From NCBI GenBank assembly GCA_964187785.1, contig OZ076409.1:67706001-67770000 (forward strand): a DNA stretch of 64,000 nucleotides, in the 5' to 3' direction. A program made the translations under genes and the position numbers. Every line of letters starts with the position of its first letter. Positions within the stretch are counted from its first letter, which is position 1. The stretch is from Amphiscolops sp. MND2022 (lineage: Eukaryota). The notes under the pieces are model-generated. The model saw only the letters and a program-made list of their open reading frames with translations, was not told the origin of the DNA and searched no databases. This document shows positions 24,086 through 64,000 of this stretch, piece by piece.

Positions 24086-25645
24086 AACTTTCGATTCATT
24101 AACGATAGTTTTGGAACTCTCAGTTATGGTATTTATACTGTTTGTTATACATGTAAATATAGTGGTTATTTTGTGTGTTTAATATTTGACAGCAAGCTAT
24201 ACTGACAGACAGAAAGGAAACGAGTTCAAATACCTGCCTGTTCAGTATAGCTAACATAGCCGCGTACGGCATATTGACCAATCACAGCCGTGCTAGCTTC
24301 ACTTACAGTTGCTATACGTTATTTATATTTACTCGGAAAGGACCGGTCCGGCCACTTGGTTAAGCCGGTCCAAGTCATCTTGTTGCTGTACTATATTGTT
24401 GATTGAATAAATAAAGTAAGGACTGACTCGGCTTACGAGTTAATTAGTCCTATCAAATGGATTAGTGACGCTTTTATATGGTTTGAAATAAGGCCCAATA
24501 CGGCTATTCGCCAAGATGATTGCTACTTAACTTTGATCATGATATGAAATGATGCTATATATATACACTAATGAATGAAATACATATAAGGCTTTCTCCC
24601 AATGAATAGATATAATTGGGAGGCAAGTGCTGTAATATTACCTGAGTGTGAAATATTTGAAATATCCCTCATGGCGTTTGGCCATGTAGGTCCCACATGT
24701 ATTGAATATGCATGTAATGTTATTTATACATGAAATTCGTGAACATATTTGAAGCCATTCAAACAACGCTTCCCGCCATGACCTAATTGAGTGCTTTGAT
24801 CTTGCCGCCTTCACTGGTGCTTAGTGACGTGACAATACTATTTATTGCCATGATGCAACTATTTTTAGCCCCCGAGCAGTTTATAGCATCATGACCATCG
24901 AATTTATGGGTGTCACGTTAACTTAAGTATAAATATGCCCAAGTTGGCCCTGACACACAATATCTTAGTGATACGGTTATTGTTCAGTTACTCTTATGCA
25001 AATTGTACAAGATTCACTGTTAAACCCAGTTTATATTTTCCACAGGAACAATTCAAACATTTTTTCATGGAGAAACCTTTTCAATGCCTTCCACAAGGAA
25101 ACAAAAAGCAAAAGCCAGGAAATTGAGGGAGTTAGATATGTTGTCCAACTGTGGCAACATGGACGTGATGCTAGGTGAAGGAAATTCAAACTCTATAGAA
25201 AAAGAATTAGAAAGCTTAATTAATGTCCCTGAAAGGCAGCAAGACTTTCAGTCATTCCCAAACAGAGAAAATTCATCTCAAGAGAATGAGATCAGGGACA
25301 TCGATAGAAGAAATGAGCTTGTCAGAGAGAGTAGACTAATAGAGTCAATCAATATGTTATCTGGAGAGATGAATGCCAGGATGCCACGTGAAATGGAAAC
25401 TATGAAGGACTTGATGCACTCACAAATTAGCAGGGTCATTAGCTCTGCCATAAGCGAGAGAATCTTTCCAGAGATACAAAACATGGTGGAAAATTTGCCT
25501 TTGAGTCAACATGGAGTTGAGCCGTGCACGTCCGCAAATGAGGATGGAATTAGGAATGTATGGAAGAACGCTAATACAAGATTGACAAAGAAGGACTCAA
25601 GGTCTGCTTGTGATCGGAGAGACGACACGGACAATGTTCCTTACA
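23997..25645 (+). repeat. 3' LTR (1649 bp), with TATAAATA at 24928 and a second copy of the Gag N-terminal ORF from 25084
   Basis: Direct repeat of 9854-11436; ends CCTTACA followed by TSD CCAAC. Confidence 0.95.
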
Positions 25646-32990: not shown

Positions 32991-33503
32991 TTTTTAGTCG
33001 GCGCTTTTGAAGAAAAGTGCCTGACTTTTACAGTGAGTAGTTTTTCAAGAAAAATTTCAGACGCGTATGGTCCAATTTATTGTTCATTTGTTCAACAACT
33101 TCAACCACGTAGGTTCAAAACACTCGAACCTCAGAAGCTCGTTCAAAACGAAAAGAAAAAATAAATCTGATGTCCAGACCTCGAAAACATACTAAGGACC
33201 CCCTTTGTGTATCTTGGTGTTTTTCATTCAGATTTTTTCGGGACTATGAGACTTTTTTGAAAACTTTTGGATTGCACCAAAAGGTGCCACCTTCATTTGT
33301 TTCGATATTTTGCAACAGAATGGATGCTAAAAAAAATTGTTTTTCGATTTTTTTTCTCCAAATGGTTCCCTTGTCATTTTTTTTCATTTTCCAACAAACT
33401 GGTGTTTCAAAAAGCCCAAAGGGTCCCCTTTTTACAATTTTAAAACTTTCGCGCTTTCTGAGCCTTAGATATAGCGCCGACGTTGGCCGTTACCGGCTTG
33501 TTC
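32991..33503 (+). mobile_element. Helentron/DINE-1-like element, copy 3
   Basis: tttttagtcggcgc..gcctgact 5' hairpin; gagccttagatatagcgccgac..ccggcttgtt 3' end. Confidence 0.7.
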
Positions 33504-34539
33504 AATTTTTCAGTTACGCAGCTAAAGAAATGAATAACTCGTCGAAATGGTATTCAGAAGACACTTATGTTCAGAAGACACGCTGGTATTAAGACAGAAG
33601 ATGATAAGAAAAGAGCCATTAATTTAACTTTTTTCTCAATCACGTAAATAAGAAAAAAATTGAGTGGGGACCATTACAATAGCGTAACGGCAAGCTGGCG
33701 CCCATCAAGTCAATGTTACTAGAAGGGGAAGAACATGAAGGGCAGTCTGTTACTGTTAATAATAACGAGCAGCTTCCTTTCTGTCTCAAAAACAACAGCT
33801 TAGTTGAAAATGTGTTGGTGATAACTAGTAAATTTCTTTTTTACAGGTACAAGAAGAGTAGCTCACGGCAAGAACGAGCTACATTAAACTCATAATTAAG
33901 GCTTCATTACAAAAAGCGAACTAATGCGACATAATATGTACGCTGATCAACACACAGTTGGCGTTGATTTTTTTTGTGTCCATTCATTTGTGTCAGTCTT
34001 TCTCTTGAATTCTTGGCAAGATATTGAGTGTTCTACATATTCTTGGTGCTCTTGATAAGAATCTTGCCAAGATTCTTACCAAGGGTTTCATGAAAATACA
34101 AAATTCTTACGGTTGACGTTACATAGGGGGTGTGCCTTATTTACTGTTTCTTCACTTAATGCGTGAAATGAAATTTATTGTGCTATTTGAAGGCTGAATG
34201 CGCTCGACCCATGCGCTTATGTTTGGAGTGCTGTGTTTAGCTATGACCGAGTAGTGAGACAATCACGTAGCTTTAGCAGGACACAAAATGAACCCTCTTT
34301 CACTGCTTTGAACCCACTAAAAGACAAAACTTTCCTGCCCAATAGTTTTTACCATTCTTTGAAGAAAAGTAATTTCTTGACTCGCAAAGAAAGAACAAGC
34401 AAATCAACAACACTAACAAAATCGTTCAAAAACTCATTTCTCTTGGAAAATGTGATCAACCAGGGAACAAAAGGCTGAGATTAAGGTGTCTGAGATAGTG
34501 TCATTTTTAGAACATACTAACTTTTTGCTGGGAAGATAT

Positions 34540-36169: not shown

Positions 36170-37094
36170 TTTTTAGTCGGCGCCATTTCCCTTAAGGAAA
36201 AAAGCCCGACTATTACAGTGGGTATTTTTAGTCGGCGCCTTTTCCCTTAAGGAAAAAAGCCCGACTCTTACAGTGAGTAGTTTTTTTTTTTTTGTTTTTT
36301 TCAGTTGACAATCTCACTCTGAGTGGTCCACTTTTCTTACAATTCTGCAATTCTGCGCAGAAGGCAAACTTTACTCCAAAGGGTCCCCCTTTCAGTTTTT
36401 ACTTTTTCAAGGAAACATACACAACCGGACGTGCCCAAAGGGTCCCCCCTTTGGATTTTTTTCGGCATTTTGCGACTTAAAAAATACTTTTTTTCGAAAA
36501 AAATTTCAAAAATAATTTTTTTGAAAATTTTTTTTCCAAATTTTTACAATAGTTGTTCCTTGAATATTTTTGAGCCTAAGATATGGCGCCGACTTGGGAC
36601 GTTCCCGTCTTGTTTTTCTTTTTCAGCCCACAATCTCACTCTGAATGGTCCACTTTTCTTACAATCTTTGTTCATTTGTTCAACTAAATTTCTGAGACGC
36701 CGGAGATCGTGGGTTCGATTCTCGCTCTAAACCACAAAATTTTATGCTTCAAAAAGTAGATGCGAGACCAAAGGTTTTCTTTCGCTTGATTTTTTTCGTT
36801 TTTTTCGGCAGTATGCGACTTTTTTTCGAAAATTTTCGGATTCTATCAAAGGGTAACCCCTTGCATTTTTTTTGAAGTTTTCGGTTTGTAAAAACGTTTA
36901 ATGAGCCTGAATGGTCTCTTTTTTGAGTTTTTCGGCATTGTGCGCATTTCTAAAAAAAATACTTTTTTTCGGAAAAAAAATTTCAAAAATTTTTTTGAAA
37001 AAAAAAGAATTTTTCCAAATGTTTCCAATAGTTGTTCTTTGAATATTTTTGAGCCTTAGATATGGCGCCGACTTGAGACGATCCCGTCTTGTTT
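36170..37094 (+). mobile_element. Two head-to-tail Helentron/DINE-1-like copies; the first has a duplicated 5' hairpin
   Basis: ttttagtcggcgcc..cccttaaggaaaaaagcccgact twice (36170-36275); 3' end ggcgccgacttg.gacg.tcccgtcttgttt at about 36585-36616 and 37064-37094. Confidence 0.75.
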
Positions 37095-38586
37095 GTGTTT
37101 CGCATTCTTGCAGTTGGGCCTTCAAAAAGCTCCCATTCGTCAAAATAGTGTCCTTTAAGCGTCAAATGGGGGTCACAAACTATGTAACGGCACCCTGTGA
37201 TCAACAAAATTTTGGAAGTTTTGACAAGTTTCTGAAAAATTCGTTCAAAACTGACTTGGCCCTCAAACATGAGTTCACGAGGTACCAGTCCCGCAAAAAT
37301 CATAAAGAGACAGCGCAAGCAAATCCCGCGAGGCGGAAAAAAGAAGCGAAATGTCGAAAAGGTGTGCGAAATGTCACAGAACCGAAAAACTGTAGCCTAT
37401 GCGCTAATTTCCACGGTGCCCATCACAGTTCGCACAGAACCAGTATTTCGGAGTAACCGCAATATCCGGACCCAGGGTTGTGCCAAACCCAAGTACCAGT
37501 GCCATGCCACCTAGACCCAATTCGCCAAACTGGATTTTAACTCTTCTTTGATGTATTTACTCATTTGTTTGATGAATTCTTGATTCGAGAGCTACCCTTG
37601 TTAATGTTGATGTCATTTACGTTAGATTCCCATCTGGATTGTTTAATTTAGTTCTATGCAACTTAGCCCCTTTTTACAGGCTATTTACGCAGTGGATACG
37701 AAGAAAAAGAGTATTTCGTGACTAGTAGCAGTAACAGACCGGAACAGGTTAGAAGGCATCCTTAGAGACGGTTCTCCCTTCTCGGGACCGGCATTCCTTA
37801 GGAGGACAAAATGGACTGGAGTCGTGGTGATTAGTCCCGAATCTCGACCCATGGCACCAGTTCCTCTATCCCTTGTAGCGAATAAACGCTCAGCGCTTTT
37901 CATTACACTAATTCTTTCGACCATAATCTCAATCTCCAACATAATTGTAGAGCATCAATAGTTTGCATCGTTGTGGCAATCTCGGTATGACGAAACTAAG
38001 GAGTTTGGGATTTATTTTCCAAAAGACTTTGTTTTCAGACTAAAAATACGTTCGAGATTTAACACCTGCAGTCACGTGCATCAAGCTCATTTTGTGCAAA
38101 TTTGTATCCAATGATCGAGAAGAAAGCGGTCTTCACAGCAATGGGCAAAACAATTGGTTGGAAAAACTCACGTCAATAAACATGAACGAGTAAAAAGCGC
38201 ATCACCACATTTACATTTGTAACTCCCATGTTCAAATGTAGAAGCCAGTTTTTGGAACCAAACTTGAGAATTCTCAAACCCTTATTCAATAAAATCCAGG
38301 CAGTTAGGGTCATAACATTTTCTTTTGTTGCCTTGATAAAATGGTGTGATCAGTTGATTGTTCTTGGTTTTGTAGATCACAATATTCTTTACGATAAACG
38401 GATTTCATTTGAAAAATGAATTTAAAATGATAAAGCTTCTGATTTTAGACTAAACCGGATAGATTGCATGAGAATAAGAATTAGCAGAAACTCAGTTATA
38501 AACAGATGCTCGAAAATACAGTCTGGTTTTCTCAAAAACGGAAGAAGGGAAAGATTAGAGGTGTTTTTTGTTTTTTTTTTCATTCC

Positions 38587-41500: not shown

Positions 41501-44500
41501 CATGGTTACCCATGATTCAGCAAGATTAACCATGATCTTAGAAAGCGTAGCGTGTCTTCGATCGCTGGGTTTCGATCCCAGATCATCAATGACAACATGG
41601 TTATTTTCCAAGGAATTATTCTCAGAATATGGAACACATTGACCGATGATGAGTCATGGATGGAAAGCCATTACTTTCAGTGAATGAATGTGAAGATTCA
41701 GTCGTAAAATATTTAGCAATGAAATTTATCAAGGCAAACAACAGTTGTCGAGACCTCGATGCAAAATTAGAGAAATATTATGTTGCAAGTATTTATAGAT
41801 TTTTAGCTTTTTATGTAATTTTTAAAAGGTTGACTGAACATTAGATTTTCAAAAATCGGAACTTTTTCCTTTTCCCCCCACACTTTTCAAGATGATGTTT
41901 TTGCATTTAATTATATCTCAATTGCGTTTCCAATGAAACAGTTCAGCTTTAAATTTATTCTTAGTGTGACAGTTTAGGATTCAGATACAAACTTTGTTCA
42001 CACTTTTTTCCTATGTAGTCACTCATTTTTGATGAAGAAATCAACAGCTTCCTGTTTTGAGTCATCAATAAACACTCAATACGAGCATAATTAGTCAAAT
42101 TGTGTGAACAATGTTTTGTTCAAGCGCAAAACTACTCTAGTAGTGTGGAGACAACAAAACAAAGGAAAAGACTTATTCGAAGAAATATTGAATGATATAG
42201 TCAAATATAATCCTTCATGTTGAGTTTGTTTTCTTTAAAAAGTGTGGGGGGAAAAGGAAAAAGAGCCCAAAAATCCAGTAAAGTTATTCTGAACACTTGC
42301 TTGGAGTAGACTTGCTTACCTGACGGTGACAGCAACCGAATTATCAATCCTGGTAGAAACAAAACAATGGCTACCACATCAATGATGTTCCACCGGTCGT
42401 TGAAAAACACTCTAGTTTTCTTCTTCAATGTTGGCTCCAAAATTGTCATGAATTGTCTGAATTCCTCCACGGCCAAAGTGAAGAGCCACAGGAAGACGAC
42501 GTATTCTATACTGGTTGGTGTGTCCTTTAGACCTAACAGGACAATCTTAAATTTAGATACACACTTTGAAGATTTTCGAAGTTTTTGAGAGAACAATGAT
42601 TGCCATTCTACTGACTCGAGTCACTAGAATTACAATCATTGTTCTCTCAAAAATTTTGAGGAGACGAAATGAAAAAAAAATGAACACGACCGTGTGTTTG
42701 ATGTACCAATAATGATGAGCCAGACCTTTTGTCTTGTTTCCAAAATATAGTTCAATTTAATGAACCATTTTTCTTCCAAACTTCAAACTTTGGAACAATG
42801 GTCAATGAATTTGATTCGAATAAGTTCTTTCTTTGACCTACAACTTAACAGGCAAATACCCAGATATAAAATTGAAGGTCAACCAAATTTGAAACATACC
42901 TGCTAGAATTACGTAACTGAATAAAATGATCAAAGCCAGCTTCGAGGCGACATTGAGAATGAAAGTGACGATTGGAGCAGTGTAGAAAAACTTATAACGA
43001 TCAGCCAATGATATTTCTTCACTCAACACAACTTCCACTTGCGCCACTGAATCCACGCTTTCCTTTGGTACCAACGTTTTTTTGTCTACAGAGTTTGTTG
43101 ACCCCTCATTTGACACATAAGCGCTTGACTTCCTGTTAGTTGCATCTATTTGTTGTTTGGAAAGAATCGAACCGTTTCGATCAACATTCAAACTTTTCGA
43201 AATCTTTCTCAACTTTTCAAGCTCTCTATGAGTATCATGAGTGAACCATATTCCATAAACAAAAGCTGGGAAAAAAGTTGCGAGCAAAATTTTCCAAGTT
43301 GAGTTTCTGTCACTGATTTTACCCAGCCAAACTTCTTGAACTAAAGTTTGACATCCACTTTGTGCTATAAACATTTTGGAATCGGCTTGTTCTGCGAGAT
43401 CCAGACATGTTTTTTGACCCCAACAATCATGCTGGATTTTGAGCATGATGTGGGAAGTTTTGGGACTGAATGCATAACATGCGTTGAGCAATCCAATTGC
43501 TTTGCGTTCATAGTCTTTCTGCATTTTCTCTACCAAGTTTTTCAAATTTATGTCAACTTTGACAGCCGACGATTCCAACATTGCTTTTGTCAATAACATG
43601 GCAAAGAGAGCACCGGAAGTTTTGCATGGCATGTCTTCCCAGAAACATAGACTCAGTTGATGCCTCATGAATAACAACGAATAGACGAACAGTTCCCTTT
43701 CAGGGTCGCGACATCGCAGTGACTGGTCATCGTCGATGCTTTCATTAAATTCTTTTGGATTCCAAGTTTTAAAGAAGGCTGTTTTCTCAATATTGGAATA
43801 CTTGGGGACATAGTGTATATCAGCGGTCATCAACAAAGCTCTGTGAATTCTTTCCATTGTTTTCTCAGTTTCAGAGTACTTCCCTTTCAAAGTTTTCAAG
43901 ATTTCTGTCAAGTACTTGTCGTTGTACAATAACATGGTGTCATAATAAAGCGTTTGCACTTTTGACTTGGTCAGGAATATTTTCATTGGGACCATTTCTA
44001 CCAGAAGCTTGACAAATTCCACTTTGTTGTCAACTAAAGCTCGGGTGAGAAATTTCTCCAAATCTCCGTCATCTAGTCGATCGTCATTTTCTTTTCTCTG
44101 ATTTTTTGCCCAGTTATTCTGTGTATACTTTATTTATAATTTATAAGTGTTATTTCTAATTTTGAAAAAAAAGTTCAAATGGAATATGATTGGCCAAAAA
44201 AAGTTCGATTACTAACGCCAACTGGAAAAATGAAAATTTGTTTCATTTATCGTTCGATTGAAATTTTAGTTTTATAATTTAAAATCAAACGTTTGGGCAA
44301 AAATAGCTGCTCTTGGGTAGAGACCAATGATTACATTTTCTGTTTCAGTAGAATCAGGCTCATCCAAATCGTCTACATCCTTTTTGTTGATTTTGGCTAT
44401 CACCTGTACAGCCATATCATCTCTGTCCCATAGAAAAGATAAATGAAACTGCGTTCTCACATCCAAGTTTTGTGTGTCCAGAAGTGTTTGTAGAATAGCT

Positions 44501-46055
44501 TTATCCAGATCTCCGGTTATTTCACTTCGATCTTCATCCAGTTTAAAGATCCGGATACTGCTTTTGTAATTCAAACACTCAACAATCCATTTCACACTCT
44601 TATCAAGAAGTCTTCCCTTCAGTTTTAAAAGAGTTTCAGTCTTTGATCGGATATATTTTTCTAGCTTTTCCCTTTTAATTTGCTCACTTAAGTGGTCAGC
44701 ATGACTGAGTTTCTCAGAAATATAGACTGCGTATGCCAGAACATCAGCTGCTCGACCGGACCCCTCTATAACGACGCAAGGGGTTCCATTTATAAGAGCA
44801 TTTCGTACTGTGTCTATCGTCCCAGGACCCCCCTCGACCATAACACAAACGATAGGGACCCTGGTTCGTTTCTTTGCAACTCCATTCTCGCAAATTACTT
44901 TTTCAAACTTGCCCCGCAGGGCTATTTCTTTTCCGAAGCGGTTGTTTGATCCGTCGTCAACAAATAAAAAATGGGTATGGTTCGGGTCAAGTCCTGTGCT
45001 TTTCAGAGGTTTTTGGTACTGGGCTTCAAAAACAGGGGAAGAAGATGAGTCATGTGTTGGAGGTGGTATCAAAGCTTCTTTTCCCTTAATGGCACCCCAT
45101 GTTGCAATTCCAATTGCAACGACTTGGTGACTGAAAAATCCATTGGATAAAAAATTAAAGAACATTTTCTTAGGTATCTATATTTTGTCAATTACATAAT
45201 TCGGAAAGAGGGGTTATTGAAAATACTTAGAAAGCAAGGGAAATATATACTCCTAAATTAGTTTCTTGGTTTATTAACCCCAAAGATTTCTTCATGGATT
45301 TGCCAGTATTTTGAAACCCAGATATATCACTCTCGAAGTGGCACGTTTTATAAGCTTCAAATGATTTTCTCCAAGATGACATTGTTTTAGCCAAATAAAG
45401 AAATGATTTTGTCACTTCAACTTTACGATTAAACTAACTTGACACTGGAAGAAGGAGCCGACGTTGCAGTTAGTAACTGATCTCTCACAGCCTCCCCACA
45501 AATCTTCATAACACCTGCATTGGTACCCCCTGTAATTATCCAGGCACCTTTCGTTGCTGCAACTCTTTGCAATCCTCGTCGCAATCGATCGTGATCTTTC
45601 TTTTTCATAGCGAAATCGTTCGCACCTCCCGTGACCGAAATAATCAGCGAAGGTTTCGCCAACTTCCAGTGTTCATGAATGTATTCCACAAGTTGCGAAA
45701 CATTTACGTCATCATTAATGCGCATATAAGGTGAGTAACTGGCAATTGTATCTTGGTTTTCGAACACAATGTTCCCAAAACATCTCAGTTTAGTTTTTTT
45801 AGTGGATTTACTGGGGTCCCATGTTTTATTGAACGGTTGAATCACTATATTTTTGGAGTGATCTTCTAATTTCAGTCCACACTGACAATCTTTGGACTCG
45901 GCAAAATGTCGAGGACAGAACTCTTTGCAATGTTTCTGGTAAAATGGGGGATCTTTCGATTTAGAAGTGGTCGAAGTGAAAGCATTTCCAAGTTCCTTGT
46001 CACCACTTACGATACCTTCTCGTGGATGAATCTTGTTTTCTGGATGCTTCTTCAT
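38587..46055 (-). CDS. TRPM: TRPM-family cation channel, about 10 exons, no C-terminal enzyme domain seen
   Basis: MHR motifs PSLIISVTGGA, AWIITGGTNAGVMK, AIGIATWG, LDPNHTHFLFVDDG, VEGGPGT, EGSGRAAD; LGPKIVMISKMIKD, pore PFFEMLGE, S6 NVLLLNLLIAIFN, TRP box, coiled coil. Phase-compatible GT-AG exons: 46055-45439, 45130-44335, 44118-42900, 42532-42320, 40591-40433, 40124-39737, 39553-39404, 39281-about 39200; last two exons (about 39122-39086 and 38750-38587) less certain. Confidence 0.93.
40764..41570. repeat. Two inverted copies of a minisatellite-containing MITE-like repeat in TRPM intron 4
   Basis: CCCAGCGATCGAAGAC at 40764 and its reverse complement ending at 41570; internal (CCATGATCTTGCCAAG)-type units; related pieces near 27030-27080, 30663-30740 and 34010-34085. 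Confidence 0.65.
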
Positions 46056-47094
46056 TGCTATAGGCGGTTTGGAAAGCGTTTTGAGTTTGGTTCAAATTCT
46101 AACCAGATTTGAATGTCCTCAAGATGTTTGATCCGTTATGGTTCAGTTTTGTTGAAGGTATCTGAGTTCAAAGCTTTCGATTGAATGATAAATTGAATGA
46201 TACTTTCCACGCCACTTATAATAATAATGATCAATGTTTTAGTATACACATTCCGAGAGTAAGAAATTTATTTTCAGAAAATAGGCACATGATCGCCTTC
46301 CAGGAAAACCAATTGGATCATTCTCAAATAAGTTTGAGATGAATTCAAAGTACTGATAATAAAAAACTCTTCCATTAAATCATGTCAGCGTTAAAAAGCT
46401 CAAAGTACTTATTACGAATTCTCTTTTTGGAACTTAAGAGTTCGCTGTTCACTAGAAACGACATTTAAGAGCAATGTGACGCACGTTATCAAAATAAACA
46501 CATTGCCCCGCTGTGGTCAGGCTTCCCCGTAAAACTACATGCACATAGAAAAACGATAGAAAGTGTAAACAATTGGAATTCGGATTTAAAAGCAGCAAAA
46601 AGTTGCACCTGCTTTTTAAAATCATATACTCGCTCTGTCTTTGATCGAACGGTGGTGTACGAGAAAAATATTACGTGACAGTGAATATTTAATGCGCAAA
46701 CGCATATCAAACGCAAAACGAGAAGAATTTTTATACATTCAGAGTTCTGTCTAAAAGTTCAAATGAAGAAAATCAAATTTTGAACCGGTGTTCTGAATAA
46801 AATTGCAATATTAGTTTCGCTTCGTTTTCATTCATGGTTGATGATGAGTTTCTTATTTTCCGCCCATATTTCACATGGGAAAGGAAAATATTTAAATCAA
46901 ACGGTTTTTTTTACAAAATTTGCCCAGTATTAATTGTATACGTAATATGAAGAGGTACATTCACAGAATTCACCTGACATAAACTCAGTTTCATGCGATA
47001 TGTATTTATAAAGATTTTCGGACTTTTTTGGGTGAAACTTGCAAATGACCTAGTTTCGAGCTTATACCATTTTCTCAGTGCCAAAAATTACCCC

Positions 47095-47770
47095 AAACAA
47101 GCCGGGACCAGCCCAAGTCGGCGCCATATCCAAGGCTCAAAAATAGCAAAAAGACTTCCAAGTGTCAAGTATTCTTTTACAGAAGTCGAAAATCGAAAAT
47201 TTTTTGAAAAAATTACATACTAAAAAAATTGGACCGAGTGACGCGCCGGGGCTCGCTACCGCGAGCCCCTGGCGCGCTAACGTCTCACAATGCCGAAAAA
47301 CTGAAAGGGGGGACCCTTTGAGGTTTTTCAACATCCATTCTGTCGCAAAGCTTGAAAAAATTGAAGAAAAATTTTTTTTTATTTTCGGGAAAAAATCTCA
47401 CAATGCCGAAAAGAACTGAAAGGAGGAACCCTTTGGGATTTTCCAACATCCATTCTGTTGCAAAACATCAAAAAAATGCAGGGGGGACCCTTTGAGGAAA
47501 AAAAAATTTCGAAAAAAAATTCCGAAAAAAAGGTCTCGCAGTGCCGAAAAAAAATTGAAAGGGGGGACTCTTTGGTCTCTCCCGGTATGGTATGTTACGC
47601 GGAAAAACAGGTAAAACCATTTTGGTCCAGTTCGCTAGGCCAAATGGTGCAATTTGACACCATAATATTTTGTAGAACTTTTAAGAACTATTTTGGTCAG
47701 TTCGTGTGGATAGAAAAAAAAAAGAGTCACTATAATAGTCGCGTTTCACTTCATGAAGCGCCGACTAAAA
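47095..47770 (-). mobile_element. Helentron/DINE-1-like element, copy 6
   Basis: aaacaagccgggaccagcccaagtcggcgccatat start; gtcgcgtttcacttcatgaagcgccgactaaaaa end. Confidence 0.72.
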
Positions 47771-48837
47771 ATACGCCTGAGACTCGGAAACCACTTTTTT
47801 CCAAAAGGAATCTCAGAAAGCCAATTTTTTTCAGTGAAGTACTTTGATGGGGACACAAGGTCACAAACTTTCTCATTCCGAAATCAGTTATGCAATTAAG
47901 GGGACCCTTCGACGAATTGAAAATTTCGGAAAGACGCACAGAGCCGAAAAAAAACTGAAATGAGGTATTTCCCACAATCAATAAGAAACCTCATCATTTC
48001 TACATGATCAAAAGTAACAAAGAGGTCACCTTCAAAACTCGGGAAACTTATTTCCTTTACAGAAAACCTCAAAAACTAGAAATTGCAAAAAATGTTTTTC
48101 GAAAATTGTTTTCGAAAAAAATGAAAACTTTCTTTTACTCGGTAAGTCGCATAGTGCCGAAAAAACGAAAACTGATCAGCTATCGCAGAAATAAAAAACT
48201 AGGTGTTTCTTTTAAAAATGGGCAATGAATAATCAAAACTTTCTTCGAACTTCTCAGCATTTTTATAGAGCATTGGCTATTCTTGAGCCTCAAAATTATG
48301 TAGTTTTAGAACAGTTCGGTGCGGAAAATATCTCGCTGCTCAGCGGGCGTCTTGTTAATCAAACTATGCATATTTAAATTTTCACATAATGCTCTTCTAA
48401 GTAATCATGGTTTATTTTATCTCAACATTTTGTTACCGTTTGAATTCATCTACATGGTACCATTCAAATCATTAGAGGAAAAAATCATACAATCAATACT
48501 TCAATTTGGAGAGCATTATTCTTCTTAACAACATTGCAATGAAACAAAACGGGAACAAATTTCCAAATTTCAAACGTTTTTCCGTTCGTGAAAAAACAAC
48601 AATCAAGCGAAAAAATCTCGGGATAACCCAATGTTACAGTCCAACCGAAACTGCGCTACTGAAACCTTAACAAGAGATTTTAAGAGATTCTGAGAGCCGT
48701 TTTTCGGAAGATATGCTCCAAAATTCATTCAAAATGAATTCTTTTTTCGAAAATTTGCACGTGAACAAAAAAATCTGTAGAAAAATGCGACAGCCTTATG
48801 CATGACTTTGCTCATGCGTCCACTTTATCAAAGTAAT

Positions 48838-49437
48838 AACAAGCCGGGAACGGCCCAAGTCGGCGCCATATCTAAGGCTCAAAAATATTCAAGGAGAAAC
48901 TATTGGAAACATTTGGAAAAAAAAATATTTTTTTTTCAAAAAAAAGTCTTCGGTAAAAAAGTTGCACAATGCCGAAAAACCAAACAAAGACCATTTAGGC
49001 TCATTAAACGTTCTTTTACAAACCGAAAATTTCAAAAAATGCAAGGGGGTACCCTGTGATAGAATTCGAAGGTTTTCGAAAAAAGTTGCCTTGTGCCGAA
49101 AAAAAACAAAGGGGATAGGGATCCTTTGGTCTCACCTTTACTTTTGGAAGCATACAAAATTTGTGGTTTAGTGGGAGAATCGAAGCCACGCTTCCTGCTT
49201 CTCAGAAAATTAGTCGAAGTTGAACAAATTAACAAACATAGATTGTAGGAAAAGTGGACCATTCAGAGTGAGATTGTCAGCTGAAACAAAAACTACTCAC
49301 AGTAATAGTCGGTGTTTTGAACATCCTTAGTTCAAGTTGTTGAACAAATGAACAACAAAGTTGACCTTACGCGTCTAAAAAAACTACCAATTGTAAGAGC
49401 CGGGCACATTATCTACTAAAATGCGCCGACTAAAAAA
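48838..49437 (-). mobile_element. Helentron/DINE-1-like element, copy 7
   Basis: aacaagccgggaacggcccaagtcggcgccatatctaaggctc start; gcgccgactaaaaaa end. Confidence 0.72.
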
Positions 49438-51689: not shown

Positions 51690-53803
51690 CTTGCTCTTTC
51701 TCTTTTTTCTTATATATTCAGGGTTGCTTTGGAACATTTGTTGACAAATATTTGAAACTATGAAAACTCAAACGTTCAAGGGATCAGTTCAAGCGTTCAG
51801 ATCCATGCTTAGTGGAAGAAAAATCCTGCATTCTAGAAAATTTGCAAAAACTAGCAATTGTAACGAAACTTTTGGACAAAAAAGCTAATTTGAGACTTTC
51901 TAAAGTTTAAGTCCCACGTGATCTAGTACATGCATTACGCTGAGAAAAAAGTCGAAAAATATGAATTAAAATCGGTCAAAAACTACAAAAAAAAACAATG
52001 CATAAATCACTAAATAGAAAACAACGCAAAAAATTATCGAATCATTATAAAAATTTTTGAAACACTTTTTAAGTCCATCAAAAAAGCATGTTGGGATCTA
52101 AAAATTTCCGTTGTTATCTCACGCCCAACTCGATCAGACATCTCCATATGCAGAAGACGTTGATATGGTCTAAAATGGAACATAACTCTACATTTCAATT
52201 GACAAAGCAAAAAGACCGAAAAAATCCGAAAGCATAAAGGCGCATCTGACATCTGATGCAAAACGAATTGTACTAATGGTATTTTGAATAGTTTGGAACT
52301 ACAGACAACATGGAAAGTGTCACGGAACTCGGAAAAAAAGAGAGATCAGAGGACACCTCGTATTATGGAATTCTTCTCTCGGGTTGAGAAAAGAATGATG
52401 CCATTTGAGGAGACGTTGGAAATGGTTGGACGAAACAATTGAAAATGAAAACAGCTCTGGAAACATTGGAAATGGATCAAGTAGGTGATTGAGCAACCTC
52501 AAGTAAGATATTATGAATATGAAATATAAACAAATACTGATAAAAAAAACCGGTAAGCTCTGAAACTACAGCTAAAATTCACGAAAAACGAACGGGACTG
52601 TAACTTATGGCTGAGGGATATTAGCTGATATGCATTCAAGCGTTTAAAGCTATTTATTTCGTAATAGCCATCATAAATGAATTTGGCAACTTCAGAAACT
52701 TGACTTTTTTCCTCGAGTTGGAAGTTCAAAAAAACTCGATGACTGTCTTCACCAAAAATCACAAAATTTTGATGATTCGCTAGTAATTCAAAAAAAATGC
52801 TTGAAAAAAGTATAGTATTTTATTCAGTATTTCAGGTTCATTCATGGATTTCGTGGCTGGAAAATAACTGGTTTTGGTATTCCTCAAAATTATGCCTCCA
52901 AAAAAACTTCATAACAAAAAGTTTTTTTTCTAAATCCGGAAAGTTATATATTTAGAGTTTTCCTAAACTTGCAAGCAACAAAAAGTCCCTCGAAAAAAAC
53001 CCAGTTTTACGAATTGTTTTGGCACACTGGCGCTCGTAGGCAATTTGTTTACCTCTCATTGTAGCGTCTGTTTTTACAAACTCGAGGCATTACCCACAAA
53101 ATTCAACAGAACTTTGCAGGTAATTTGGATTTAATTTCTTGATGTTGCTCTGAAAATCCGTCAATTTGTACACCTTAAATACCTGAACAATTAGTGACTA
53201 TGATGCCATGATGCATGTCCTCAAAGATTCTACAAATCTGAAATACTCTGAACTCTTAACCAAAGCAATTAGTAAATGTAATCTCATTGAAAGCTAATTA
53301 TTCTAGAAGAAACTTCACTTAACATATCCTGTAACAAGCTTCTTAGATTCATCCAGTTGCTGTCACATTGTTAATTGATGAAACCTACCCTAGTTAATAG
53401 AATATATCTACTTGGGGAAATTGAGAATTCATCCCGACGATCGGTCTTCTCTCCAGCACTTCAAGAACTGAGATCTCAGAAATAGATTGTACTTAGAACT
53501 AGCTAGCTACCAGGTATAAAGTAAGACGACTCTGCTGTTAAAATCTTAGACTTCTTATGTCAGTAATAAAACATCTAAAAGAAACAACCACCACACTTTT
53601 CAACAGCTCAATTGGTGCGACGAAGAAAATTCTTCTTTCTCTCCCATTCATTTCACAACTCTACAATTGTTGTACACCTTTTCTCGACTTTCTCATCCGA
53701 TATCTCTTTGTTCGACACACAGTTTCTCCACCTCTCAATATAGTCTACCGTTATTAATTCAACGTTGCAACCAATTTCCACTAGAAATTGATTCGTGTTG
53801 CTA

Positions 53804-53934
53804 TGGTTCTGACTAGGTCCCCTCACGTAATTCCTGTCAGTTACATTTCTTGGTTCTGACTGCGTTTCTCAACGTACTTCCTGTCAGTCATAATTCTTGG
53901 TTCTGACTACGTTTATTCGCGTAATTCCTGTCAA
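53804..53934 (+). repeat. Three 47-bp tandem units in the 5' leader
   Basis: TGGTTCTGACT at 53804, 53851, 53898, each followed by CGTA(A/C)TTCCTGTCA. Confidence 0.85.
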
Positions 53935-54725
53935 TAAAAAATTTTTCGTTCCAACCACCTCTGAGTGAATTCGTGTTGGCTTTCGCTCTCTCTTCCGTTC
54001 CAACCGCAGACGTGCGATACGTGTTGGCCCTTCCACAGTGCTATCCAACGATACCTGCTAGTAAAAAGTTCTTTGGTTCTAGCCGCTAGGATCAACTTTG
54101 AAGTTGGCACACCTGTATAACATATGTTTCTTATATAACACCATTGAAACATCTTTCTTTCTCTCTCTTCTATAGTACAAACATCATACAAAACTCTTTC
54201 AAAACAAGTTTACGGATCCAAATACATAACAATTAAAATATATAACAAATATATTGAACTTCATTTTTCCTACATTCATATAATACCTTTTTATACAACC
54301 TCTTTGACACACTCTTAATAGAACTTCATTGTACATGCCGTCATCAATAGACATTATAGTTAGGCTCAATGTCTGCTTTTGGTTCTTTATTGCTATTGTT
54401 GCCGGTCTTGCACTTTTTCTTGACAAATTTTTAATTTCGTTCATACCAAAATTTTAAAGTACAACCTTTTCCTTCTATGTTAAGAAGTATAGTACTACCT
54501 CTTTTTGGACTGCTTAGTATCTACCATACCTTTTACACACTGATTCAATATATACAAAACCCATTCCTTCTTTTCATAAGTAAAGCACTTACAATCTTCT
54601 TACAAGTTGTATTTATAGACCAAATCTTACCATATAATTCACAATTCAATACAAAATATCTTCTTTTCCAATACATCTATCCTTTATGGCTATCTTATTA
54701 TACTAACTAAATCTTACACCATATA

Positions 54726-57700
54726 ATGCTTCCGACTCCATTTACATTAAATACAGAAAAAAGACAAAATCGATCTCTCATACAAGATGTAACACCTTTT
54801 CTGAATAACATCATTTTTCAGTACACAAATCCACTTCCATTTGGAACAGAACCCCATACAGTCCATACTATTCCATTAACACGAGAACATTGTGATTCCT
54901 ATCTTTATTACATTCGATATAAAACACTTGAAATAACATCATCACAAACCCCTTTCCAAGTTATATTTAACCCAGTTAAAAGAATAAACTCTGGAAGATT
55001 TTATAGAACCATTCACCCACAAAATATTACACTTTCTATACAAGATGTTTTCCACACATATATGCAAAAACTCATCGAATTCAATGAAAACTAAGACATA
55101 CCACTCTATTGTCCTTCTCACCTACAGGAACTAAAACACAGATCTGAATATTTCGAGGTCCCCGATCTTGACACAAAAGTTCAAAGACATAATAACCCTC
55201 ATTATTGGCTACAACGAGATATTTTACAAATAGAAAATTTTCAATACAGATTCTTTAACAACATTATCCTTACAGATGACACTATACCTCAAGTCAAAAT
55301 TTTTACCCAATTCCTATTAAAGTTTCTTAGATTTAATTATCAAATACTTTGGGAACAAAAAGATCAACAAGCTTACATTAACTTCCCTCAAATATTAACT
55401 TATATCGAACTTTTACCTTACCATACATTATCAAAAATGAAAACACACATTTACAATACAGAGATCTTACATCATTCAGTGTTACACATTTTGAACAAAT
55501 AAACTTTGATCACAACTTCTTGCTTGAACATTGTGAAACATCAGATAACAGACCTTTTATTACATCCAATACTTCTCATGAAACAACTTCTGAAGAACAA
55601 ACCTCTAATGTTGAATCTTTATATACGAGACAACAATCAGAACAATCAGAACAAGAAGACCTTGCTAACCTGTTTCAAAATTCTGATCCTCCTCAAGAAC
55701 AACCACTATACCCACCACTATCACAAATCTCAGATATACAACAACCAAATCCTTTTGAAACAACTACAAATCACAATACATCAGAATTCTCTGAAGAAAC
55801 AGTACAAAATACCCAAAGTTTTACAATAACTCATGATTCAAATATTATGATAATTCCTACCCACAATATTACACAAAACGAATTTAACAACCAAAATCAA
55901 GACAACACTTTCACTACAAATCCAGATAATACCTCTGTTTTATCTACATCCAATACTAATATTACACAACCTTCTCAGACACAAGTACCATCTCCTCGAA
56001 ATTATAATCCATCTCATGTTCCACCTCCTGTTCCACCTCAACTCAGATAAACACCCATTATTCTCCTCAACAAAGCTCATCAACTACACACCATATTACA
56101 CAGAACAATAATACAGTACATTTTCAAACACCAACCACCAACCATCACCTGCTGAAATACAAACTTCAACTTATACTCCAGCTCAAACTAACCCAGTACC
56201 AACTAAACAACCTTCATTAAATATTAACACCATTCATTCCAACTCATCCTTTAATTATACCACTGCCAGACATCTTTCTCGACCTCCATTACAAACTATA
56301 TTAACTAATCCATTATCGTACAGTCTTACCAGTACTAATCCAAGTCATACACAACAATCTCAAATAAATTATAACACACCCAATCCATTAAATACTCTTT
56401 CTTCTCAACATACGTCTAATACAATCACACCTACATTACGAAGTTCCCTATTTCAAACACAAAATCCTCCTTCAACAACAATTAGAACCAACCCTCACTT
56501 TCATAACACTTCTACTACTTCCTTAACTAATATTTCAAATAATCCTACTTACAATACAATACCACCATCTACCGTATCTTATAATAATATGTCACAACCA
56601 ACATATATTAACTCTTCTACTTATATATCGGAACCCATTAAACCTTTTGATGGACTAGATTATAATTATACACCTGAAGAATATTTACAACATATTGAGG
56701 CACGTGTTACAATCTCCTTAGGTTTACAACCTACATCAGAACATGAATATAAATTTTGGCACGCTCGTCGCATGGCTTTCATACAATGCTCATTAACAGG
56801 TACAGCACTTTGCTGGTACATTCGTTCAAACGACACCTAAACATGATTGGCACGTTTTTGTACAAGCTTTCAAAAAACAATTTTCCTCACAAAAGAACGC
56901 TTATTATGCTCAAGTTGAAGCCCTTAATTTAATCAAAAAAGATAACGAAACAGTACGTCATTTTGCACTTAAAGTTCAACAGCTGGTTGAAAAGGCTAGT
57001 GCAAGGAGAATGCATCCACTATTAACCTTAAATGTAATGAAATCTTTACAAAAGGACTTCCCAAAAATCTTAAAGACTTTGCAAACAAAAGACAAGTAAA
57101 ACACACTTCTACTGTTTTAGAACCTTCAATCCTTTTTCATACATTAGTAAAACTTGTTGACGCTGAAGATATCGCAAATGACAAAATCAGAACACATGAT
57201 CTTGCACTTGAAATTAATAATATTACAAAACAACTGAACACTCAAACTCTTGACCCTTCATCTCAAGAGCAACTTATGTTTACACAACCCAAAGATCCAA
57301 ATAACAAAAATAAACCTGCATATAAGAAATATTGCTCATACTGTCATAGAACAAATCACTCCATTTCTGCTTGTTTCAAAAAGCAACGAGATGATGAAGA
57401 CAAGCGAGAAGCATATGCTCCATCAAAATCTCCAAAAATATCATTTGTACAATATTTCCGTTCTCCTTCCAATGATAGAACAAAACACTATGATAACCGA
57501 TACCGAAGTCAAAGTACCTCAAGAGACAACTCTTACAATAAAAACTATTCACAAAATCGATACCGTTCTACATCTAGAGATAGAGATAGATTTAGTTATG
57601 ACAAAAGTACTACTCCTCCACACTGCTTTAGATCACGATATGATACATACAAACGTGATTTCCGGTCCTACTGTTCTCCCTACAGATCTTCATACAGATC

Positions 57701-57802
57701 CCCATATCGACACAACTCTCGTCCTAGATACAGATCACGCTCCTATTCCAGAGACAACAAATTCACAAAATATACAAATTCATACAGACCACCTTCAAGA
57801 CC
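54726..57802 (+). pseudogene. gag: gag with long N-terminal extension, capsid-like region, CCHC knuckle and RS-rich tail
   Basis: IKPFDGLDYNYTPEEYLQHIE..SLTGTALCWY (capsid-like), CSYCHRTNHSISAC, SRDRDR/RSPYR repeats; several stops and frameshifts. Confidence 0.8.
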
Positions 57803-60046
57803 AAGAGACTCTAGATTTTCTAGATCTCGCTCACACTCCAATTCCAGAAACAAAATTAATATGATACAACAACAAGACCAATCTGACCCTATAAAATTTG
57901 AAGTACACATGTGTCACCCAACAGCAATGGCATTTGCTGTCACACCTACAAGTTGGTTTTATACATTATATGTACATACACCATCAAGTATAGTACAAAG
58001 AGACAACCCATCTAGATTGGAAATTGCATTCCTTCTAGATAGCGGTGCTTCTATTTCTGTATTAAACTACGCAACATACATAACTCTTACGAAACTTTTA
58101 GATATCAGACCAAATCACATTTCCGATGTTGGACCAACTCGAAAATCCAAAACATTAACTGTTGCAAACCAAACTGAAGTTCCTATTTTACACTATGCAA
58201 ATATAATTCTGAACACTACTATTGATGAGAACTCCCGTTACTTTTCAGTACCTTTTGCAGTAGCTGATATCAAATACAACATTCTTGGCACACCCTTCTT
58301 TGAAGATAATATACAAAACATAAACATACAAGGCTATACACTCGAATTCAAATACCAATCAAAAAGAGACTCTAGATTTTCTAGATCTCGCTTACACTCC
58401 AATTCCAGAAACAAAATTAATATGATACAACAACAAGACCAATCTGACCCTATAAAATTTGAAGTACACATGTATCACCCAACTGCAATGGCAATTGCTG
58501 TCACACCTACAAGTTGGTTTTATACATTATATGTACATACACCATCAAGTGTAGTACAAAGAGACAACCCATCTAGATTGGAAATTGCATTCCTTCTAGA
58601 TAGCGGTGCTTCTATTTCTGTATTAAACTACGCAACATACATAACTCTTACGAAACTTTTAGATATCAGACCAAATCACACTTCCGATGTTGGACCAACT
58701 CGAAAATCCAAAACATTAACTGTTGCAAACCAAACTGAAGTTCCTATTTTACACTATGCAAATATAATTCTGAACACTACTATTGATGAGAACTCCCGTT
58801 ACTTTTCAGTACCTTTTGCAGTAGCTGATATCAAATACAACATTCTTGGCACACCCTTCTTTGAAGATAATATACAAAACATAAACATACAAGGCTATAC
58901 ACTCGAATTCAAATACCAATCAAAAAGAGACTCTAGATTTTCTAGATCTCGCTTACACTCCAATTCCAGAAACAAAATTAATATGATACAACAACAAGAC
59001 CAATCTGACCCTATAAAATTTGAAGTACACATGTATCACCCAACAGCAATGGCAATTGCTGTCACACCTACAAGTTGGTTTTATACATTATATGTACATA
59101 CACCATCAAGTGTAGTACAAAGAGACAACCCATCTAGATTGGAAATTGCATTCCTTCTAGATAGCGGTGCTTCTATTTCTGTATTAAACTACCAAACATA
59201 CATAACTCTTACGAAACTCTTAGATATCAGACCAAATCACACTTCCGATGTTGGACCAACTCGAAATTCCAAAACATTAACCGTTGCAAACCAAACTGAA
59301 GTTCCTATTTTACACTATGCAAATATGATTCTGAACACTACTATTGATGAGAACTCCCGTTACTTTTCAGTACCTTTTGCAGTAGCTGATATCAAATACA
59401 ACATTCTTGGCACACCCTTCTTTGAAGATAATATACAAAACATAAACATACAAGGCTTTACACTCGAATTCAAATACCAATCAAAAAGAGACTCTAGATT
59501 TTCTAGATCTCGCTCACACTCCAATTCCAGAAACAAAATTAATATGATACAACAACAAGACCAATCTGACCCTATAAAAATTGAAGTACACATGTATCAC
59601 CCAACAGCAATGGCAATTGCTGTCACACCTACAAATTGGTTTTATACATTATATGTACATACACCATCAAGTGTAGTACAAAGAGACAACCCATCTAGAT
59701 TGGAAATTGCATTCCTTCTAGATAGCGGTGCTTCTATTTCTGTATTAAACTACCAAACATACATAACTCTTACGAAACTCTTAGATATCAGACCAAATCA
59801 CACTTCCGATGTTGGACCAACTCGAAATTCCAAAACATTAACCGTTGCAAACCAAACTGAAGTTCCTATTTTACACTATGCAAATATAATTCTGAACACT
59901 ACTATTGATGAGAACTCCCGTTACTTTTCAGTACTTTTTGCAGTAGCTGATATCAAATACAACATTCTTGGAACACCCTTCTTTGAAGATAATATACAAA
60001 ACATAAACATACAAGGCTTTACACTCGAATTCAAATACCAATCAAA
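57803..60046 (+). repeat. Four in-frame 561-bp (187-aa) tandem copies of the retroviral-type aspartic protease
   Basis: aagagactctagattttctagatctcg at 57803, 58364, 58925, 59486; each unit has FLLDSGASIS and NILGTPFF. Confidence 0.97.
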
Positions 60047-60571
60047 AACACACCCAAATTATGCAAAGTTCACAACACTCCTATCTAAAGATTATCCATA
60101 TTTCTCTTACATTTATAGAATTAATTCAAAGACTCAAATACGTTTAAAACCCAAGTCTTCAGAAATTGCACACTTTCCAATAAAAACTTATCATAACCTC
60201 CATTTTACAACTACACCACAAAACCACTTCTTCCCTTCAGTACCTCATACCTATTTTGCTACTAAATTTCGTACAAATTTCAAATTTATTGAAGTATTCA
60301 CTGATGACAAACCAGATATCTGTGCAACTATCATCCAAAACACCTCAAAACATGATGCAACACTACCTACAGGACATATTGGATTCATTGAAGTTCCAAT
60401 TACTAATGAAAAACCCAAATTCTTCCAAGTTAATGATATTAACACTTTAATACATAATGTTACTCATACCTACCATCCTGAAATACTGAACCAATTCCAC
60501 AAACTAACTATATCGTACAGTACGATGATCCTACAACCCCTCCTCCTCAATTCTCCTTACATCAAATTTAT

Positions 60572-62134
60572 ATGACAAACGATGACATTCCAAATCAAAC
60601 TTCTCCTTTATATAACGTTCAGCCTACTTCTCATACTCCCGAAAAACGCATTTTTCCTTCTCTACCATACACTTCTGAAAATCTGAAATTTTTATATAAA
60701 TTTCACTGCCAATTTTCTGATCTTACAGACACCGAATACATTACTCTTTGCAATATGTTACTCAAGTATAAAACATGTTATGCAACTCATAAAAACGATG
60801 TTGGAAAAATTTCAACACCCTTCCGTATTCGGCTTAAACCTAATGCTCAACTTATGACACAACGTCCTTCTAAAGTCCCTATTCACTACCGAGACAAACT
60901 GAATGTACTTCTCAAAGAACTCGAAAAATATAACATTAACAAACAAATTGGTTCCTCTCCACAAGACGAACCCGTTTATGGCACCACTTATTTGAACCCT
61001 CTCATTATAATCCCCAAGGGAGAAACTATAAAATGTGTATTAGACGCTCGACATCTCAACTCCAAAACAGAACAATCTGATGAATCTTGGCCTTTTGAAC
61101 CTCTCGCTCCACAATTAGCACGCGCAAACAAAAAGTACAAATCTGCTATTGATCTTATGTATGCCTATGCACATACACCTCTTGATGAAGACACTATTAA
61201 ACTTACCAGTTTCTCCTCAGGTGATAAACTTTCGGCTTTCATCCGAGGCTTTTATGGTCTCAAAGGACTCCCAAACTTCTTTACAAAACAAATGTCTACC
61301 TTCTTTAAAACTCTTATAGAACAAGGTTTTGCTCTTGTCTACATTGACGATATATTACTTTTATCTGACTCTAAAGAACACATGTTCCAACTCATAGAAC
61401 ATCTACACATAATAAGTACAAAAAACAATCTTAAACTAGCCCCTGAAAAATCCTTTTTCATGCTTCTTAAAGTCAAATTTCTTGGACATAAATTTGACTA
61501 CAATACAATTAAACCAATCCATTCGAAAATTGCAGGTATTCATAAAATTCCTTCTCCAACTGGCAAAGTTACCCTGATGAGTTTCATTGGTGCACTCAAT
61601 TTTTACACCAAATTTATTGAAAAACTACATATTAACCTCAAACCATTTTACGATCTTTTACATGAGAACACTCCTTGGAAATGGACAGACGAACACGAAA
61701 GTCTCTTCCAAAAACTTAAAATGTCTCTCACTTCTGAAACAGAACTTACAATACCAAATACAAAACATCCGTTTTTCATTACAGTTGACGCTTCCCTTAT
61801 TGGATTAGGCGCTGTCTTATTCCAATTAAATGAACAAAACAAAAAGAAAGTTATATCGTACAACTCTCGTATACTTAACCCACAAGAACAAAAACTCTCC
61901 ACTTTTGATAGAGAACTTCTTGGTATAGTACATGCCCTCCAAATTCATGAATTTCTTATCATTGGTTCTCCCCATCCAATACACGTTTTTACTGATCACA
62001 AACCTTTATTACATTGTTTTACAAAGAAAGGTAACCTTAGTCCTCATTTCTATAGAGCTCAAATGCACTTAACAAAATTTTCAAAACTCAAAATATTCCA
62101 CACTCCTGGAAAAACTCTGTTGCCGATATGTTGA
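60572..62134 (+). pseudogene. pol: Reverse transcriptase and RNase H of element 2
   Basis: CVLDARHLN, AIDLMYAY, FYGLKGLP, VYIDDILL, TVDASLIGLGAVL, RELLGIV, TDHKPL; frameshifted at both ends. Confidence 0.93.
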
Positions 62135-64000
62135 GTCGCTCTTTTACAAAAGCTGAATTGAAACTCAACCAATTAGAACATAAACAACTTCCACCACAAA
62201 TTGATTTTGCACTTCTACAAGATAACACTCTTAAACCTGTACATTACCTAATTAAACATGAAGAAATATTACCTCATCAAAAACATGTCTCTCACCCAAT
62301 TCTCGCTGATTATGGTACAGACCAATTCTCTATTCGTATCAATGATAAAGGAAATGAAATTGTTGTCAAACCGCTACAATCTTTCTCATTCAAATCTATA
62401 ACTCCTTTTCAAACCAAGTTCAAAACACCTATAAAAAAGAACAATAAAACCCTCCATCAACAATCTCTCTTCCTCAATGATACTGATGTTACAAGCGATG
62501 ACGAAGATCATATATATACCAGAATTCCAAAATCTGACTCTTCTTTCCTACAAGACACAACATTGCAAACAAAAAACTATTCTACTCTTAAACAATTAAC
62601 CCCAAATACTGCACAAAAATCTGTTTCTGCAATAAATGTACAACCTAATCTACCATCTCTCACACATTTTCCACAAAAAATATACCGTTCTATGATACAT
62701 CATTTTTTAAGTAAAAGAAACTATTTTCAAGGTTTTTTCCTCCCAGTTGACTATTCATTAGACATAACAACACTTCAACAACAACAATCCCAAGACCCGG
62801 TTCTCAGAACTGTTTATTCTTGGATCATCAAAAATGAAAAACCTGAGACTCTGACACCACTTATCACTGGCACTCCTTTTCTACATGCTTATTACAAACG
62901 ATTTGCACAACTTTTGATAGATGACTCCACAAATCTTATTCGCCTTTATACTAAACATCCTGCTACTCTAAACCAATCTGCTACTCCAGATTTTATACGC
63001 GCTACTATTCGAATATGTCTTCCATTTCGACTCTTCAAAACTGTTTTTAACAAACTTCATGAACACTCCCATACAGGCATCAAAATTTTATATACCACAT
63101 TCACATAATATTACTACATTCCATTTGTTGAAAATAGGCTTTACATTTTTATACATGACTGTATTGAATGTCAACGCAAAAAACACTTCAACATGAAAAT
63201 TCAAACTGCTCCTACACAATCCTTTTCAGAACATGCTCCATCCTTCAATTACCGCATTTCAATGGACACTAAAGGACCTATTAACCCTTCTTCCCACATT
63301 AAATCATATATACATGTAATGATTGACGCTTTTAGTCACTTTGTTTTTACAGTATCCATCAAATCAAACAACGCAAAGACTGCTATCAAAACTCTTCTAC
63401 ACTATTGGATTGTTAAATTTGGACCACCCATCTATCTTGTCACTGATCGTGGATCAGAATATGTTAATAAAGAAATGGCACACCTTTGTACACTTATGGG
63501 AATTCGTCATTCTCCAAGAACAACTTACTCTCCTTGGACAAATAGCCTTGTCGAAGTACAAAACAGAAATCTTGGTACACACCTACGATTGTTCTTACAT
63601 GACACACCTAAAGATTGGGCAATCCAAGTCCATATGTACGCTTATGCACATAATTCACAACCACTTTTAGAACTCAGTATTTCTCCTCATCAAATTGTTT
63701 TTCACACCAGACCCAGAATCCCCCTAACGTTCGATTTAAAACTTAACAGAGACACCTCTAAAACATGTATTTCACGCTATTACTCTCAACTTCCAGAACA
63801 CTCCCACTATGATAAATCAGATCTTAACCCATTTTTCATAAAACACTTTCAAAACCCATTCCACAATGGTTTCTCGCCGTAGAAGCTGCTATGTTAAAAA
63901 TTTATTCCACCGTATACGAAAACACTTTACGAGAAATCACTTCACACGCATACATTACGAAAACATACCACGAAGGTAAACCCCTTCCTATTGGCACCTT
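62128..64000 (+). pseudogene. pol: RH-IN linker and integrase of element 2
   Basis: QQQSQDPVL, LHEHSHTG..CIEC (HHCC), SMDTKGP, VTDRGSEY, SLVEVQNR (DDE); stop at 63106-63108 and a frameshift near 63840. Confidence 0.9.

Follow-up and report, generated by a model that had tools for sequence, protein, structure and literature searches.

Real, Probably Neutral: A Tandem Array of Four Putative Aspartic Protease Units in a Dead Ty3/gypsy Retrotransposon

Four head-to-tail units of 561 bp, each with the motifs of an aspartic protease, share one open reading frame within a broken Ty3/gypsy retrotransposon of Amphiscolops sp. MND2022 (contig OZ076409.1; “the window” is the whole stretch of 64,000 nt analyzed here, and all positions are counted from its first nucleotide). 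The array is confirmed as a genuine sequence feature of the contig. It is probably a neutral local duplication, without a selected function, that took place after the element had begun to decay. Feature coordinates are collected in Table 1.

Table 1. The array and the retrotransposon around it, by position in the window.
Feature	Positions	Strand	Remarks
Putative 5′ LTR	53330..54073	+	starts TG; 47-bp tandem at 53804-53944; presumed boundaries; 3′ LTR beyond the window
Primer-binding-site-like stretch	54074..54091	+	starts TGG; role suggested by position
gag region, broken	54726..57802	+	stop 55092; frameshifts about 55414, 56028, 56138, 56838, 56999
Open frame	57000..60575	+	late gag, zinc knuckle, RS-rich linker, four units, start of pre-RT spacer; possible starts Met 57276, Met 57861
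CCHC zinc knuckle (nucleocapsid)	57333..57374	+	single copy outside the repeat; motif read in translation
Unit 1	57803..58363	+	end of RS-rich linker, KINMI junction, aspartic protease (by motifs and position); DSG codons 58038-58046
Short DNA hairpin	57805..57828	.	2 nt inside each unit start
Unit 2	58364..58924	+	mosaic of units 3 and 1
Unit 3	58925..59485	+	from sequence comparison
Unit 4	59486..60046	+	then the usual downstream sequence of the family
Reverse transcriptase and RNase H	60482..62134	+	RVT_1 E 1.8e-13, RT_RNaseH_2 E 2.5e-25
Tether and integrase region, broken	62056..64000	+	frameshifts near 62678, 62712, 63839; stop 63106; leaves the window

Array Structure

In a self-comparison, the array (57803-60046) gives matches at lags of 561, 1122, and 1683 nt and none at 560 or 562, and a repeat search finds four copies from 57803 with spacings of 561/561/561; the units run on in one open frame, with no indels. 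They are 97.5-98.9% identical to one another at the nucleotide level: per 561 nt, units 1 and 2 differ at 6 positions, 1 and 3 at 12, 1 and 4 at 14, 2 and 3 at 8, 2 and 4 at 12, and 3 and 4 at 6, with 17 variable columns across all four. The 29-nt junction between units occurs exactly three times, against none in 100 shuffles. The open frame is 1191 aa long from stop to stop, or 1099 aa from Met 57276.

A first-pass annotation, made from the sequence alone, had described four exact 561-bp units within this 1099-aa frame, each with an intact DSG, an ILG, and an upstream junction. The lag self-comparison and the translated frame bear this out: every unit (4/4) has KINMI at unit residues 18-22, DSG at 80-82, and ILG at 161-163. 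The variants that it listed are also exact (YATY/RKSK/GYT in units 1 and 2, YQTY/RNSK/GFT in units 3 and 4, SRLHS in units 2 and 3).

The ends of the array have a 2-nt microhomology (AA) in common. The hairpin near each unit start, noticed post hoc, hints at most at a fragile site; at -5.3 kcal/mol it is in the lowest 0.7% of 3760 overlapping windows, and is about the fifth-strongest site of the element.

The Host Element and Its Decay

The LTR retrotransposon that holds the array begins near 53330 and extends past the end of the window. Its domain order after gag (protease, reverse transcriptase, RNase H, integrase), read from Pfam profiles and relatives, is that of Ty3/gypsy elements. A TG start, as in the putative 5′ LTR, is a feature of LTRs. 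A Retrotrans_gag match (PF03732, E 6.5e-6) lies at 56797-57096, and an rve match (E 3.5e-18) at 63109-63879.

Frameshift-aware alignment to three natural relatives located 12 breaks in the 7031 nt outside the array, 10 of them frameshifts and two stops, and they fall on both sides of the open frame; a frameshift near 60484 separates the reverse transcriptase from the protease frame, and another near 62112 ends the RT/RNase H frame. Six of the 10 frameshifts, including those flanking the frame of the array, and both stops are away from homopolymers of at least 5 nt. The other four, all toward the 3′ end, coincide with such homopolymers (background 9.6%), so some consensus or sequencing error is possible there. 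In the RT, 22 of 529 conserved columns have a rare residue. This copy of the element is dead, with gag-pol broken, as the first-pass annotation had said; the 10 frameshifts and two stops rule out an autonomous active element.

Some other properties of the element may be recorded here. The gag of the family opens with about 250 aa that match no Pfam family; between these and the capsid domain lies a long stretch rich in Ser/Thr/Asn/Gln/Pro (54726-55500 in this copy). About 145 aa between protease and RT (60047-60480) are conserved in the family and have no Pfam match; some gypsy elements carry a dUTPase between protease and RT, according to PMC5408684. The element has a strong C-over-G skew over 53330-64000 (-0.31 to -0.44), with flanks at about 0.

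Elsewhere in the window, two direct repeats of ~1.2 kb (9854-11083 and 23997-25292; 93-98% alike) lie on either side of a second decayed retroelement (12600-17700) with protease and RT matches. There are also an ABC transporter exon (477-980, forward strand), a TRPM-like channel gene whose open stretches, of 431, 301, and 220 aa, are unusually long (42838-46091, reverse strand), and a dispersed family of short repeats in both orientations (3066-3540, 33055-33509, 36170-37100, and 47094-49380). The ABC transporter and TRPM-like sequences are of host type and would suggest an animal source.

Identity of the Units

Motifs and position mark the units as putative aspartic proteases: each has a DSG and an ILG (D-[TS]-G and ILG motifs as defined in PMC2642776), and they lie between nucleocapsid and RT, as expected for the one-lobe retropepsin type (clan AA). 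Single units score 13-15 bits with PF13650, under the Pfam cut-off of 24.3; the four summed pass it, at 38.9. Atlas features give 0.92-0.95 to aspartyl-protease clusters, with 10 of 10 named matches in one clan. Structure models were of low confidence (mean pLDDT 35.9 and 51.5), and searches with them gave nothing at E 0.001 in Foldseek and nothing above Z 4.0 in VIA-align. A sequence search of the PDB gave no matches for one unit, and one chance match for the profile. Membership of the bilobed pepsin family A1 was considered and rejected, the four units being near-identical and the Pfam matches including no pepsin profile.

Origin and Timing of the Array

The units have some unusual residues in common, and these give a relative date for the first duplication. 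At unit position 45 all four have a residue (I or F) that is rare in the family: of 402 other close relatives, 10 have I there. At position 178 all have a G found in 4 of 348, and the two together occur in none of 322 others. All four also depart from the family at position 91, where A occurs in 0 and Q in 2 of 397 (the protein corresponding to the window's own array, P0569, has been subtracted from these counts). Each unit has six to seven rare residues, two of which predate the first duplication. The duplication therefore came after some private change. Most simply, this change would be decay after insertion; a mutated parent moved in trans is the alternative.

Unit 2 appears to record a later event. 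Over columns 1-188 it has one difference to unit 3 and five to unit 1, while over columns 269-561 it has one to unit 1 and seven to unit 3; all six columns that split units 1 and 2 from units 3 and 4 are at or after column 269. A three-step mosaic model accounts for all 17 variable columns without repeated change, which supports the stepwise unequal recombination proposed in the first-pass annotation.

The history would then be as follows. One member of a Ty3/gypsy family with a very high copy number, in which near-intact elements make a single long Gag-Pol containing one protease, inserted and started to decay. A 561-bp stretch may then have been duplicated head to tail through a join at the 2-nt microhomology, giving units A and B (now 12-14 differences apart); B would have been doubled to make three units (6 differences); and a crossover offset by one unit, between columns 189 and 268, would have produced the mosaic unit 2 and a total of four units (2 differences). 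Gene conversion of the front part of unit 2 is an equivalent alternative to this last crossover. The period would be divisible by three by chance, and the units would since have drifted like the remainder of the dead copy. The order of the steps, their post-insertion timing, and the lack of expression are what we infer from these patterns.

This layering also bears on whether the array, or part of it, could be an assembly artefact with fewer true units, most realistically two three-unit haplotypes merged into four. The last step is young, with unit 2 only 2 nt in all from its two donors, as alleles might be, and the homopolymer frameshifts at the 3′ end make some consensus error possible. The units, however, are 6-14 substitutions apart with no indels, in a pattern free of repeated change, and the junction is identical three times. 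The two rare changes common to all units mean, in addition, that these are not pieces of different family copies. Such layered divergence argues against plain assembly error, and an artefact is considered unlikely, the part of it most open to a haplotype merge being the last step.

Relatives and Survey of Other Copies

The family is very large, with clusters of 2407, 1183, 509, 290, and 285 members, and its long members (e.g., P0123, 2731 aa) read through gag and pol without a change of frame and carry a single protease. A total of 671 proteins was fetched; 587 have a match to the unit, and in 419 the sequence extends from DSG to ILG. This survey, which covers in-frame protein arrays, is a sample: clusters have up to 2407 members, with 15 listed for each, and since direct searches show cluster representatives only, other arrays may exist.

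Within this sample the array occurs at this locus only, the outcome that the first-pass annotation had named as pointing to a neutral duplication after insertion. Two protease cores were found in 0 of the 418 other proteins that cover DSG through ILG, and the unit junction in 0 of the 332 other alignments that read past the unit end; a search of 50% clusters gave no two full protease cores among the 150 of 300 matches listed. The junction pattern had no matches in JGI metagenome contigs, and no related loci were confirmed in metagenome and viral contigs; these collections apparently lack the family, which makes both results uninformative. The sole four-unit protein found, P0569, is letter-for-letter the window frame from Met 57861, and so is probably the same record or locus and not an independent one. 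It sat within a 38-member cluster, and was missed by the direct searches. Among the titles and abstracts covered, none describes a protease array of this tandem kind occurring naturally in an LTR retrotransposon.

A k-mer lag scan, which recovers the window's own array, found in-frame tandem duplications with other breakpoints in 3 of the 670 other fetched proteins. In P0182 (188 aa) a 79-aa duplication doubles the DSG half of the protease; in P0599 (1030 aa) one of 387 aa covers capsid-nucleocapsid; and in P0168 (2244 aa) one of 899 aa covers gag, leaving two almost identical copies, with two zinc knuckles. Two of these duplications stop within the RS-rich region that precedes the protease, the region in which the hairpin at the unit start of the array lies. 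In-frame tandem duplication is thus a background process in the family, though the near-identical cases could also be assembly errors. In-frame internal deletions of the protease, directly after the catalytic motif, were also seen (P0422 and P0458).

As another possibility, the array might belong to a mobile sub-lineage, having been made by template slippage during reverse transcription or carried in a defective copy moved in trans, in which case sister insertions exist. The sample is small for a family with thousands of protein fragments, and its clusters can conceal arrays; the near-identical duplications of P0168 and P0599 look like recent events in little-decayed copies. Set against this are the sampled relatives, none with the junction or with both shared changes, and the three levels of divergence among units (12-14, 6, and 2 differences), which need long residence in DNA. 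By analogy with HIV-1, as described in PMC2974656 and PMC8537868, a linked protease would also harm an active element, which fits the presence of the array only in a dead copy. A mobile sub-lineage thus seems decidedly unlikely.

Selection

Between units there are 13 non-synonymous and four synonymous differences, with 3.9 synonymous expected, giving a dN/dS of 0.97; this value, from 17 sites (95% range 0.30-4.1), is compatible with weak constraint. Rare residues per conserved column number 6/177, 6/176, 6/176, and 7/177 in the four units (3.4-4.0%), and 40/1032 (3.9%) in the dead flanks, the tether and one integrase segment with a possible frame problem being excluded from the latter (Fisher p 1.0). 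The reading of the array as a neutral one in a dead element, put forward in the first-pass annotation as one of two possibilities, is consistent with this unconstrained dN/dS, with decay equal to that of the flanks, and with the lack of a second sampled locus. Purifying selection on a kept frame, as in a domesticated retroelement protease gene, was not detected in the same two comparisons.

Some properties argue mildly against neutrality: the array is unbroken, its period is in frame (a 1-in-3 prior), and its breakpoints enclose a whole protease domain. With no stop or indel in the array, ~2.1-2.2 breaks would be expected over its independent history, for a P of 0.11-0.13 for none, or 0.02 if shared history is ignored. 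If the array is counted once, an open stretch of such length is ordinary (P 0.47), the RT having one of 1628 nt against 1802 nt for the frame of the array so counted; the locus was, moreover, chosen for its open frame. Intact DSG and ILG motifs in the units are expected by chance (P 0.61).

Another possible reading is co-option by the host, with the frame expressed from Met 57276 or Met 57861 as a tethered, assembly-independent protease that cuts the family's Gag-Pol in trans, or as a pepsin-like single-chain enzyme. The frame is open, each unit has a whole domain with all catalytic motifs intact, and expansion has been repeated; an 8-residue linker is enough for a linked HIV-1 protease (PMC2974656), and the spacer here is longer. 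Arguing against co-option are the dN/dS and decay values just given, the chance expectation for the motifs, and near-invariant positions beside the catalytic motif that are changed in all units. There are also 29 ATGs between the primer site and Met 57276, and the linkers appear to keep the presumed upstream cleavage region, so that, if active, the enzyme would probably process itself into monomers. Co-option is, on this evidence, very unlikely.

Possible Function if Expressed

Retropepsins are one-lobed and must dimerise, and pepsins are thought to derive from duplication and fusion (PMC2761423 and PMC2642776). The first-pass annotation had suggested that the polyprotein could form functional intramolecular dimers. 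This is unsupported: purifying selection was not seen between the units, they decay like the flanks of the dead copy, and the sampled relatives include no second locus. A tethered dimer within the array chain is nonetheless plausible by analogy, the spacer between units (24 aa after ILG, plus the N-terminal part of the next unit) being longer than the 8-residue HIV-1 linker, which would allow pairing within a chain. Since this spacer keeps the presumed cleavage region, release of monomers would be likelier than a tethered enzyme, and translation of the frame would need internal initiation past the 29 ATGs.

It might be imagined that a four-lobed tethered retropepsin, translated from an internal Met and independent of assembly, poisons the assembly of its own very abundant family in trans, as a natural parallel to the engineered linked HIV protease, and represents a living intermediate on the way to pepsin-like enzymes by duplication and fusion; this is very unlikely. 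If it were expressed and active, the array would amount to a novel way for a host to control a retrotransposon. If it is neutral, as preferred here, it offers a clean, small example of a dead transposon in which a repeat was seeded and then grew through unequal crossover, and shows that in-frame multi-lobe aspartic proteases, the proposed raw material for pepsins, arise by accident in high-copy families. The array also supplies a natural construct with which to ask whether tethered lobes that are nearly identical pair with each other inside a single chain.

Comparison with Known Systems

The pepsins of family A1, like the array, have more than one Asp-bearing lobe per chain by tandem duplication; their lobes are anciently diverged, with one active site under selection (PMC2761423 and PMC2642776). 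The array, in contrast, has four units with 94-97% protein identity to unit 4, and no sign of selection. A second comparison is with 2PR, an engineered linked dimer of the HIV-1 protease, in which complete monomers also stand head to tail in one polyprotein; two monomers linked by 8 residues in Gag-Pol lead to premature processing, with no particle formation (PMC2974656 and PMC8537868). The array differs from 2PR in being natural, in having four putative protease units with long linkers that keep the upstream junction, and in being separated by breaks from RT and from the gag sequence upstream.

Within the family, the duplications of P0168, P0599, and P0182 resemble the array in being head-to-tail and in frame, with private breakpoints, and differ in that they double gag or half a protease, and do so once only. 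The near-intact relatives P0123, P0124, and P0111 have the same order of gag, zinc knuckle, protease, RT, RNase H, and integrase, with 94% identity across protease and RT (P0123 has Retrotrans_gag, RVT_1, RT_RNaseH, Integrase_H2C2, and rve, and SH3_Tf2-1 under the cut-off). The array is a structural variant of this known element, real and probably neutral: the window copy departs from these relatives in having four protease units instead of one, and 12 disabling breaks.
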